Assembly (NCBI GenBank): GCA_903858655.1
Contig: CAIOJS010000266.1
Coordinates: 1 to 24,000 of the forward strand
Length of the DNA: 24,000 bases
Reading direction: 5' to 3'
From: an uncultured bacterium
GTDB taxonomy: Bacteria > Bacteroidota > Bacteroidia > Bacteroidales > CAIWKO01
This document shows positions 8,980 through 10,314 of the stretch, one piece after another (the stretch's first letter is position 1; every line of letters begins with the position of its first letter). Both the position numbers and the translations under genes were made by a program. The notes below the pieces were generated by a model. It had not been told where the DNA came from. It ran no database searches and saw nothing but the letters and a program-made list of their open reading frames with translations.

Positions 8980-10011
8980 ATGACAAAACATTACGTAACC
9001 GATGTGATTGGCACAGCGATTGGAAGCGTAGAGCGAGTTTCAACGGTGTGGAGCCGATTAGATATTTTGCAAACAATTCGTGTGCGGTGGTCAATCGGAA
9101 GAATGAATTATTTAGTAACACCTGGAGTTTATGCAGTTGGCAAGCCTGATGCGGATTCTAACATATTTATTAGCGCCAATTTCAAACTAAGTTTCGACCA
9201 TTTGCGGCGAGCCCTTCACGGGATAAACGCCTGGATATTGGTGCTCGATACTAAAGGAATTAATGTATGGTGTGCTGCAGGCAAAGGAACTTTTGGTACA
9301 AAAGAACTTGTCCATCGTATCAGTGAACATCACATAAGCCAACTTGTGAATCATAAAAAACTCATTCTTCCACAGCTCGGTGCTGTGGGTGTTTCGGCTT
9401 TTGAGGTTAAAGATCAAACAGGCTTTAAAGTAATTTATGGACCTGTGGAAGCCAGAGATATTAAACCCTTTGTTGGTACAGGAATGGAAGCCACTCCTGC
9501 CATGCGGAAAATCAATTTTACTATGATTGACCGTTTGAAGTTAATCCCCGTTGAATTGTCTTACGGGCGCTACTACTTATTGCTAATTCCCGCTATTTTC
9601 TTTATCCTTTCGGGACTCAATATTCATGGATATTCTGTGGATGCTGCATGGCAAATAGGCGGTATATCGGTCTTATATTTATTGGTTGCATATCTTTCGG
9701 GATGTGTTATCACACCAATGTTATTGCCTTGGATTCCTTTCCGCAGATTCTCCGTTAAGGGATTAATCATTGGGTGGATATTGGGTGGCGTTGTTTTATA
9801 CCTAACAGGAAGTTTGCTTACCATCTTCGAAATCATTTCATGGCTCTTGATGATGGGCTCACTTTCATCCTTCCTTGCTATGAATTTCACAGGCTCCTCC
9901 ACGTTCACATCCTTATCGGGAGTGCAAAAAGAAATGAAATTGTCATTGCCTTTGCAGATTATTGCTACAGGCATAGGAATTATTGGTTGGATAATCACTA
10001 GATTTATATAA
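8980..10011 (+). CDS. hgcA: Mercury methylation corrinoid protein HgcA
   Basis: Diagnostic cap-helix motif GINVWCAAGKGTFG (Cys98 at nt 9271-9273). Flanking conserved blocks are GRMNYLVTPGVYAVG, AWILVLDTKG, LILPQLGA and VIYGPVEARD. The C-terminal half has about 5 TM helices. Confidence 0.92.
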   Translation: MTKHYVTDVIGTAIGSVERVSTVWSRLDILQTIRVRWSIGRMNYLVTPGVYAVGKPDADSNIFISANFKLSFDHLRRALHGINAWILVLDTKGINVWCAAGKGTFGTKELVHRISEHHISQLVNHKKLILPQLGAVGVSAFEVKDQTGFKVIYGPVEARDIKPFVGTGMEATPAMRKINFTMIDRLKLIPVELSYGRYYLLLIPAIFFILSGLNIHGYSVDAAWQIGGISVLYLLVAYLSGCVITPMLLPWIPFRRFSVKGLIIGWILGGVVLYLTGSLLTIFEIISWLLMMGSLSSFLAMNFTGSSTFTSLSGVQKEMKLSLPLQIIATGIGIIGWIITRFI

Positions 10012-10014
10012 TTT

Positions 10015-10314
10015 ATGATAGAATTAAAATATTTAAAGAACGTTGTTACGCTTCAACTCGATCAACAGAAATGTAATGCATGTCGCATGTGCGTGCTGGT
10101 TTGTCCGCATGAAGTATTTGAAATAAAAGATAAAAAAGCCCATATCATTCGTAAAGATTTATGTATGGAATGCGGTGCGTGCGAAAAGAATTGTTCGGAG
10201 GGAGCCATAAGTGTAAAATCGGGTGTAGGATGTGCTGCAGGCATCATCAACGGCTTGTTGCGCGGCACAGAGCCTACTTGCGATTGCTCATCTAGTGGCA
10301 GTGTTTGTTGCTAA
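10015..10314 (+). CDS. hgcB: Mercury methylation ferredoxin HgcB (2x[4Fe-4S])
   Basis: Two CX2CX2CX3C motifs (CNACRMCVLVCP and CMECGACEKNC), a conserved extra Cys in GVGCAAG (C73) and a C-terminal vicinal pair ...SGSVCC. The gene starts 3 nt after hgcA. Confidence 0.9.
   Translation: MIELKYLKNVVTLQLDQQKCNACRMCVLVCPHEVFEIKDKKAHIIRKDLCMECGACEKNCSEGAISVKSGVGCAAGIINGLLRGTEPTCDCSSSGSVCC

Follow-up and report, generated by a model that had tools for sequence, protein, structure and literature searches.

A probable hgcA-hgcB mercury methylation pair within an arsenic-type gene cluster of an uncultured Bacteroidales bacterium

Bacteria are known to methylate mercury by means of the gene pair hgcA and hgcB. 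Here, we analyzed such a pair in the first 24,000 nucleotides (nt) of contig CAIOJS010000266.1, which comes from an uncultured Bacteroidales bacterium; this whole stretch is referred to below as the window. The pair and its parts, with protein lengths and positions in amino acids (aa), are as follows.

8980 to 10011, + strand: hgcA, corrinoid methyltransferase with a membrane anchor (ATG start, 343 aa; NF040863)
[quoted passage not shown]
9256 to 9294, + strand: cap-helix motif of HgcA, GINVWCAAGKGTF, aa 93 to 105 (read from the sequence)
9544 to 10005, + strand: transmembrane domain of HgcA, five helices, aa 189 to 342 (AlphaFold2 helices, hydropathy)
10015 to 10314, + strand: hgcB, ferredoxin with two [4Fe-4S] motifs, 99 aa (ATG start; NF040864)

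Both proteins were searched against curated profiles, as a preliminary description of this DNA had proposed, and both scored above the equivalog cut-offs. HgcA matched the NCBIfam HgcA_corrinoid equivalog NF040863 at 425.4 bits (cut-off 275; E = 1.4e-127) over positions 1 to 324 of the 325 in the profile, and HgcB matched HgcB_ferredoxin NF040864 at 120.9 bits (cut-off 99; E = 1.5e-35) over positions 1 to 93 of 93; Pfam assigned HgcB to generic 4Fe-4S families only. Cys98 of HgcA is encoded by the TGT codon at nt 9271 to 9273, and the NVWCAAGK around it (aa 95 to 102) is one of the six cap-helix motifs accepted in PMC10087281. The cap-helix motif was invariant among 34 close homologues and identical in 41 of 50 HgcA sequences spanning many phyla. 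The TAA stop of hgcA at nt 10009 to 10011 is separated from the start of hgcB at nt 10015 by a 3-nt spacer. Two CX2CX2CX3C motifs occupy aa 20 to 30 and 50 to 60 of HgcB (nt 10072 to 10104 and 10162 to 10194), the first cluster reading CNACRMCVLVCP (aa 20 to 31) and the second CMECGACEKNC (aa 50 to 60). Cys73 lies within GVGCAAG (nt 10231 to 10233), and the C-terminal cysteines are Cys89, Cys91, and the terminal pair Cys98-Cys99 (CC at nt 10306 to 10311) in a tail, TEPTCDC-x-CC, that is conserved among relatives. The preliminary description had given the same open reading frame (ORF) coordinates, the motif with the position of Cys98, and, for HgcB, the 3-nt gap, the 99-aa length, the two clusters, the Cys in GVGCAAG and the final CC, and the sequence bears out all of them.

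The soluble part of HgcA resembles the corrinoid-binding domain of CFeSP. Its sole Pfam match was PF03599 (CdhD; aa 46 to 163, 52.5 bits), and aa 28 to 166 aligned with the corrinoid-binding domain of CFeSP in PDB entries 2h9a, 4c1n, and 4djd (phmmer, E = 1e-13 to 1e-7). C-terminal to this part, hydropathy revealed five hydrophobic segments within aa 195 to 340, and an AlphaFold2 model built with 34 homologues (mean predicted local distance difference test score [pLDDT] of 80) consists of an alpha/beta N-domain and five long helices (aa 189 to 210, 220 to 247, 257 to 276, 282 to 308, and 312 to 342). When the model was compared with the PDB by Foldseek, the top match was 9a0b_A (E = 7e-19, 41% identity over 327 columns), and 9a0b is the computed model, published in 2020, of the HgcAB complex of Pseudodesulfovibrio mercurii (= Desulfovibrio desulfuricans) ND132. 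CFeSP chains ranked after it and matched the N-domain only (~148 columns), with a probability of 1.00 to 2ycl, 2h9a, and 4djd. A sequence search of the PDB returned no HgcAB entry, and CFeSP proteins were the only experimentally solved relatives. The corrinoid-type N-domain and the approximately five transmembrane helices of the preliminary description were thus recovered from the Pfam match, the CFeSP alignment, hydropathy, and the model alike.

The high-stringency rules of Capo et al. 2022 (PMC10087281) recognize HgcA by an accepted cap-helix motif and HgcB by C(M/I)ECGA on a contig shared with hgcA; the two proteins carry NVWCAAGK and CMECGA, respectively, and are encoded on one contig. The HgcA and HgcB residues that matter have been defined by mutagenesis in ND132 (summarized in PMC7305189 and PMC11588087), and those required there are all present here: NVWCAAGK with Cys98, both cluster motifs, CMECGA, Cys73, and the terminal CC. 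A neighbor-joining tree of the corrinoid domain was then considered, built from two CFeSP fragments and 50 HgcA sequences that span many phyla, without bootstraps and without fused HgcAB-like sequences. The window HgcA fell inside the Bacteroidales HgcA clade, and a long branch parted all HgcA sequences from the two CFeSP sequences. Of the phylogeny that the preliminary description had called for, the separation from CFeSP therefore stood; the fused clade was judged by gene structure and hidden Markov model (HMM) scores, because fused HgcAB-like sequences were absent from the tree. Its view of a Bacteroidota-like genome held as well, since the near relatives are all Bacteroidales metagenome-assembled genomes (MAGs) and the flanking Acr3, ArsP, and ArsR are 88 to 93% identical to proteins of Bacteroidales hgcA loci. 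These data indicated that the window very probably holds true, intact hgcA and hgcB orthologues of an uncultured Bacteroidales bacterium, with an ND132-like mechanism and set in an ars-type cluster. Methylation of Hg has been found in all organisms with a non-fused hgcA that have been tested to date (PMC10087281). As a member of a family that is well described, the pair is ordinary, and its clade has been on record since 2015-2020.

All genes between 457 and 11473 lie on the + strand, and the spacers from 3949 to 11473 measure 0 to 88 nt. Around the pair, the gene order is arsR, lipoprotein, MacB-type ATP-binding cassette (ABC) exporter, rhodanese, arsC, a Cys-rich protein, a DsbD-like protein, hgcA, hgcB, and acr3. 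This arsenic-operon context was absent from the preliminary description. Its features are listed here, and the Cys-rich and DsbD-like genes are taken up further below.

457 to 3789, + strand: organoarsenical-type cluster of an arsE-like thioredoxin, arsR, two arsF, arsG, and arsP (TIGR00412; NF040494, twice; NF040495, 315.5 bits; PF03773, 239 bits)
3949 to 4311, + strand: ArsR/SmtB regulator with an N-terminal CC and a C-terminal CCSC (NF033788, 67 bits against a cut-off of 55)
4342 to 5163, + strand: predicted secreted protein (lipoprotein) with an N-terminal hydrophobic segment and a C-terminal SSCCPGGSSSGCGKK tail (translation)
5170 to 7056, + strand: MacB-type ABC exporter, with the FtsX permease at 5170 to 6390 and the ATPase at 6391 to 7056 (PF12704, PF02687, PF00005)
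7044 to 7496, + strand: rhodanese-domain protein (PF00581, 36.2 bits)
7501 to 7917, + strand: arsC-like arsenate reductase of the low-molecular-weight protein tyrosine phosphatase (LMW-PTP) kind, thioredoxin type (PF01451, 77.5 bits)
10403 to 11473, + strand: acr3 arsenite efflux permease (TIGR00832, 434.4 bits against a cut-off of 282.8)

The ArsC-like protein has the LMW-PTP fold, a CX5R loop, and a C78/C85 pair in its translation, and it scored 133.6 bits against TIGR02691, under the cut-off of 174.3. The organoarsenical-type cluster is complete and lies directly upstream of the hgcAB cluster; its synteny extends to many Bacteroidales hgcAB loci. For the secreted protein at 4342 to 5163, no family match was found in Pfam or NCBIfam, and its homologues are present in related loci; CC-tailed periplasmic proteins resembling it occur in Chloroflexota and Phycisphaerales loci. 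The MacB-type exporter recurs 5' of hgcAB in several Bacteroidales loci, and the trio of ArsR, secreted protein, and exporter does so in L010, L023, L024, L026, L029, L083, and L085.

The ArsR at 3949 to 4311 is the probable regulator of this operon. Co-transcription of the hgcAB cluster is probable, and a thiophilic metal(loid) such as As(III), rather than Hg, would be the controlling signal. In ND132, ArsR controls hgcAB and arsenic induces it (Gionfriddo et al., 10.1101/2022.10.17.512643). Several points weigh against our account of the locus and its genes. The window HgcA is only ~41% identical to the validated HgcA of ND132, in HgcB the second cluster motif closes with CS where the ND132 consensus has CP, and the corrinoid binding, cluster content, methyl donor, and activity of the pair are predicted by homology. 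A monophyletic cluster of Bacteroidetes HgcA has been published, and, as of 2020, methylation had been confirmed for no member of the Bacteroidales (10.1101/2020.04.01.018762); our literature search found no later methylation test of the Bacteroidales HgcA clade. The operon structure is drawn from spacing and synteny and from nothing else, because the promoter, terminator, and operator scans were uninformative. In a sigma-70 and terminator scan of 3700 to 12500, counts equaled those of shuffled sequences and no intergenic terminator was seen; a search for the Bacteroidetes-type TTTG-N-TAnnTTTG gave 6 matches versus 2 expected, none of them informatively placed; and a search for ArsR-operator-like inverted repeats returned AT-rich palindromes only.

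By homology to the ND132 proteins, the N-terminal Rossmann-like domain of HgcA would bind a corrinoid, with the thiolate of Cys98 as the axial cobalt ligand, and the five helices would anchor the protein in the membrane. The two [4Fe-4S] clusters of HgcB would deliver low-potential electrons to produce Co(I), and S-adenosylmethionine (SAM) would methylate the cobalt to methylcob(III)alamin. The methyl group would then move to Hg(II) held by the thiols of HgcB (Cys73 and the flexible CDC...CC tail), and methylmercury would be released. For the ND132 enzyme, SAM as the methyl donor and Co-thiolate ligation have been reported (Zheng et al. 2024, PMC11588087), the HgcB clusters reduce the corrinoid and the methyl group goes to Hg(II) (PMC11588087, PMC7305189), and Cys73 of HgcB as well as at least one C-terminal Cys is needed for activity (PMC7305189, PMC11588087). 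Cys-on ligation of the corrinoid and the biochemistry of Hg(II) methylation have been shown for ND132 only (PMC11588087), and we infer that the Bacteroidales pair does the same chemistry.

Set beside the HgcAB systems of ND132 and Geobacter sulfurreducens PCA, the window is alike in its adjacent genes, the CFeSP-like domain, NVWCAAGK with the Cys ligand, and the five transmembrane helices, and the HgcB proteins share two [4Fe-4S] motifs, Cys73, and a C-terminal Cys pair. Upstream of the pair, the window and these systems alike have an ArsR-family gene; however, no other ars genes are co-located with hgcAB in ND132, whereas the window pair stands within what is probably a full ars-type operon. 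The window further differs from ND132 and PCA in the Cys-rich and DsbD-like genes that precede hgcAB, in an HgcB tail with four cysteines (CDC...CC) instead of two, and in its host, a fermenter-type Bacteroidales lineage without confirmed methylation as of 2020.

To place this setting among other loci, window proteins were compared by tblastn with 80 hgcA loci of species-representative genomes, and same-strand matches no more than 4 kb from hgcA were counted. ArsC was found 5' of hgcA in 25/37 Bacteroidota loci versus 1/24 in other phyla; for ArsR the counts were 25/37 versus 3/24, with short divergent ArsR proteins possibly under-detected in distant phyla. The DsbD-like protein lay 5' of hgcA in 18 of 37 versus 1 of 24 loci. 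On the 3' side, Acr3 was present in 18/34 Bacteroidota loci versus 1/22 elsewhere, and HgcB in all loci of both groups (34/34 and 22/22). About one third of the Bacteroidota loci and nearly all loci of other phyla were without ars neighbors. Thus, embedding in ars genes is the rule in the Bacteroidota clade and rare in other phyla. An association of hgcAB with arsC, acr3, arsR, and arsM has already been published (McDaniel et al. 2020, PMC7438021 Fig. 6; 10.1101/2022.10.17.512643; PMC10349881). The window belongs to the Bacteroidales HgcA clade of the literature (Peterson et al. 2020; McDaniel et al. 2020; Hg-MATE), for which flanking arsC and acr3 genes are illustrated in PMC7438021 Fig. 6; it differs from that literature in its DsbD-like and Cys-rich neighbors, which go without mention there, and in a sequence that is a singleton at 90%. 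The arsenic-operon setting is known in outline, and what may be new is the linkage to the accessory pair.

Two gene fusions were seen in other loci. In L089 (JGI Ga0114951_10000127), positions 3229 to 4668 encode a 479-aa fusion of an LMW-PTP ArsC with a SAM methyltransferase that is ArsM-like by its Pfam families, placed between arsR and the module of Cys-rich, DsbD-like, and hgcAB genes. In L070, a Chloroflexota MAG (JAPLHL010000288.1), positions 2773 to 3402 encode an HgcB fused at its C terminus to an ArsD domain (PF06953, 96.8 bits; MCCSSGVCG), and the ORF runs past the contig end.

Among the alternatives, it is possible, although we consider it rather unlikely, that a real HgcAB was selected for the handling of arsenic or another thiophilic metal(loid), with Hg methylation as a side reaction; one possible form would be corrinoid-dependent methylation of As(III), or its hand-off, before efflux by Acr3. 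The placement of hgcAB between arsC and acr3, beneath an ArsR with Cys sites, speaks for such a role, as do the ArsC and Acr3 counts, high in Bacteroidota and low elsewhere, the fusion of a Chloroflexota HgcB to an arsenic-chaperone domain (ArsD), and the ArsC-ArsM fusion just 5' of the module in another locus. Family scans found no arsM in the window cluster, and arsenic induces hgcAB in ND132 (10.1101/2022.10.17.512643). However, deletion of hgcAB left the arsenic resistance of ND132 unreduced (10.1101/2022.10.17.512643), and the literature that we found reports no As-methylating activity of HgcAB. The loci that lack ars neighbors, a third or so in Bacteroidota and nearly all in other phyla, also argue against an arsenic role, and the co-location may come from shared regulation or from a resistance island, not from shared chemistry.

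It is improbable that the native substrate is a halomethane, such that HgcAB would work as a corrinoid reductive dehalogenase and methylate Hg co-metabolically. A 2026 preprint describes dechlorination of CCl4 by heterologously produced HgcAB and by model methylators (10.64898/2026.04.26.720869), but this is a single preprint on Desulfobacterota enzymes, and the window neighborhood is all thiol and metal(loid) handling, with nothing for halocarbon metabolism.

The other alternatives concern the identity of the genes. It is hardly credible that HgcA is a CFeSP-type corrinoid protein of the Wood-Ljungdahl/acetyl-CoA pathway that was misread, even if PF03599 is its sole Pfam match and CFeSP proteins are its only experimentally solved relatives. 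The large subunit of CFeSP is a soluble protein of ~440 aa with a C-terminal corrinoid domain, and it works with a methyltransferase and acetyl-CoA synthase in carbon fixation. In this subunit (AcsC/CdhE; 2h9a, 2ycl, 4djd), the corrinoid Rossmann domain and the cap helix are homologous to those of HgcA (24 to 32% identity over ~148 columns), but the subunit also contains an N-terminal [4Fe-4S] part and a TIM barrel, and it lacks both a membrane domain and the Cys ligand. Only the last ~120 to 140 residues of CFeSP align with HgcA, in which the N-terminal [4Fe-4S] part and the TIM barrel are replaced by five transmembrane helices. At the position of Cys98, CFeSP proteins have Thr or Ala: CFeSP DTDGTSVLTAWAAGKF aligns with HgcA DTKGINVWCAAGKGTF, and therefore the Cys ligand is specific to HgcA. 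Furthermore, the gamma-subunit model NF003195 gave 76.6 bits against a cut-off of 306, and Pfam and NCBIfam scans found no acs or cdh genes in the window. The CFeSP identity is refuted by domain architecture and HMM scores.

It would be equally surprising if the locus belonged to the fused HgcAB-like clade (e.g., Q8U2U9 of Pyrococcus furiosus), which shares the cap helix, the transmembrane domain, and the ferredoxin motifs (PMC10087281) and whose tested carriers are non-methylating. The model of that clade, NF043039, partly matched both ORFs, at 192.4 bits for HgcA and 54 bits for HgcB, but both scores are below its cut-off of 285, and the HgcA- and HgcB-specific models scored much higher. Fused proteins are one polypeptide, whereas the window genes are separate, with a TAA stop and the 3-nt spacer between the two ORFs, and the fused identity is refuted by this gene structure. 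The preliminary description had named placement with CFeSP or with the fused proteins as the outcomes that speak against an hgcAB pair; both are excluded by the scores (76.6 versus 306 and 192.4 versus 285 bits) and by the separate ORFs. A pseudogene was rejected as well, both ORFs being full length against the profiles.

Between arsC and hgcA lie the two accessory genes.

7988 to 8272, + strand: Cys-rich single-pass membrane protein, 94 aa, with an N-terminal CGC..CC and a C-terminal CC..SCCPK (translation)
8272 to 8973, + strand: membrane protein of predicted DsbD/CcdA fold, 233 aa, with CxC (C33, C35) and CC (C153, C154) (PF02683, PF13386)

Family searches of Pfam and NCBIfam gave no match for the 94-aa Cys-rich protein. 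The DsbD-like protein matched the Pfam families DsbD_TM (PF02683, 33 bits, cut-off 27.1) and DsbD_2 (PF13386, 31.9 bits, cut-off 24.9). In canonical CcdA/DsbD proteins, which have six transmembrane helices, two conserved helices each hold one redox-active Cys; the DsbD-like protein has two cysteines at each site, CxC and CC. In the family alignment, C33, C35, and C154 are invariant and C153 is nearly so, the second site reading CCNPxFP. The AlphaFold2 model of this protein, at a pLDDT of 63, was not used for fold search or placement of cysteines. The family is small: a search of 5.8 billion clusters gave 358 matches at E <= 1e-3, and the matches listed are nearly all of ~233 aa. It is a distinct subfamily, because its profile passes over the ArsG of the window.

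With the family profile, we found the DsbD-like gene just 5' of hgcA in 33 Bacteroidota loci. In 31 of the 33 it ends within 60 nt of hgcA, and the exceptions are L012 at 173 nt and L003 at ~1.4 kb. A metagenome search with the DsbD-like protein yielded 3 loci only, too few for statistics, all 3 with the gene 5' of hgcA; seven further homologues, picked as not obviously in the HgcA match list, also lay 5' of hgcA (7/7). A Cys-rich ORF of ~76 to 121 aa precedes the DsbD-like gene in 29/32 loci; these ORFs carry an N-terminal C-x-C...CC-x-P-KK, then a single hydrophobic helix, and then a tail bearing CC and CDT repeats, for which SCCPK is a common ending. In the Calditrichota locus L065, the order is ArsR, an 82-aa Cys-rich protein ending in NCCPK, DsbD-like, and HgcA; in the Chloroflexota locus L070, it is DsbD-like, a lipoprotein ending in SSCCPEGSGSSCQ, HgcA, and HgcB fused to the ArsD domain; and in the Phycisphaerales locus L048, it is ArsR, HgcA, HgcB, a 214-aa Cys-tailed membrane protein, DsbD-like, and Acr3. 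The family thus adjoins hgcAB in every context examined, in four phyla. The pair is not obligatory, because about half of the Bacteroidota hgcAB loci are without it. In the hgcAB literature, we found no mention of Cys-rich or DsbD-like neighbors, nor of hgcA together with DsbD, CcdA, or cytochrome c biogenesis in such a sense. The linkage of the four-cysteine DsbD-fold protein and its Cys-rich partner to hgcAB is tight and apparently exclusive, and it may be novel.

For the Cys-rich protein, the positive-inside rule applied to KKKNK before the helix suggests a cytoplasmic N-terminal Cys cluster and a periplasmic CC tail. The Cys-rich and DsbD-like pair may pass a thiophilic substrate to HgcB or take a product away. 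We tentatively propose, as an idea that we ourselves hold to be doubtful, that hgcAB is the downstream half of a four-gene module in which the pair would serve as a thiol relay, bringing Hg(II) or As(III) through the inner membrane to the Cys-rich HgcB tail or carrying a product away; such a module would cover Bacteroidales and, sporadically, Calditrichota, Chloroflexota, and Phycisphaerae. The mer thiol relay runs through the Cys pairs of MerP, of MerT/MerC/MerE/MerF, and then of MerA. By analogy only, the accessory pair is like it in having paired cysteines on periplasm-facing, intramembrane, and cytoplasmic segments beside an enzyme with a C-terminal Cys pair, and a weak MerE match appeared in the NCBIfam search (E = 0.0097). 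It differs from the mer relay in that no MerT/MerP homology was detectable, the membrane protein has a predicted DsbD/CcdA fold, and neither a mercuric reductase nor MerR is present. If true, the relay would give a first candidate for the route, long sought, by which mercury methylators achieve uptake or hand-off, and it would offer a concrete way into the native function of HgcAB. The counts single out two uncharacterized Cys-rich membrane proteins of a family found only beside hgcAB, and the linked membrane thiol pair is a target for knockout and mutagenesis with respect to Hg(II) entry, methylmercury exit, and the evolved role of HgcAB (PMC7438021; 10.1101/2022.10.17.512643).

The exact sequences of HgcA, HgcB, the DsbD-like protein, the Cys-rich protein, and the lipoprotein are already in NCBI and ENA assemblies, on a contig of 38.7 kb and without protein names, and each is a singleton at 90% clustering. 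The closest non-identical HgcA is 72 to 73% identical; the best 120 matches are nearly all 343 aa long, at 64 to 73% identity, and there are hundreds of 343-aa Bacteroidales metagenome homologues at 60 to 73% identity. Several relatives carry the name 'mercury methylation corrinoid protein HgcA [Bacteroidales bacterium]', and among species-representative genomes, the best ~40 HgcA loci are from Bacteroidales, Bacteroidota, or Prolixibacteraceae MAGs. The G+C content of the window is 40%, and the window is chromosomal, because murA and sufB are present. The hgcAB call thus adds one uncultured Bacteroidales carrier to a long list, and it matters mainly for the inference of environmental risk, since in lakes and reservoirs hgcA abundance can be dominated by fermenters of this kind, for which no methylation had been shown as of 2020 (10.1101/2020.04.01.018762).

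Three related loci deviated from the usual picture. L031, from a MAG labeled Alphaproteobacteria (SACF01000039.1), has a Bacteroidales-type HgcA and an HgcB tail identical to that of the Bacteroidales locus L032; because it clusters with Bacteroidales in the tree, mis-binning of the contig or a recent transfer is the probable explanation. In L062, from a Brocadiaceae MAG (PWZK01000084.1), the cap helix reads GINVWGAAG, with Gly (GGC) replacing the essential Cys, which is either a natural inactive form or a sequencing error. In the Bacteroidales contig L092, a 247-aa gene at 5737 to 6480 with a weak match to the uracil-DNA glycosylase (UDG) family lies between hgcA and hgcB and splits their usual adjacency.

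Elsewhere in the window, 12440 to 14620 holds a gene like those of the DUF1573/OS_HP2-family (seleno)proteins, and after it comes one for a MauE/DoxX membrane protein whose C-terminal part is thioredoxin-like (CDHC); together they make up another thiol-redox pair, just 3' of the ars/hgc cluster. At 19295 to 22376, an O-methyltransferase gene (PF00891) is followed by that of a 649-aa B12-binding radical SAM enzyme, weakly similar to P-/C-methyltransferases, which is another gene for corrinoid-dependent methylation, ~9 kb from hgcAB. Finally, two different arrays of 42-nt tandem repeats lie ~60 nt apart at 22592 to 22832 and 22891 to 23157 (5.7 and 6.4 copies, 88 to 92% matches), and the long ORFs on both strands at 22592 to 23157 are probably artifacts of these repeats.

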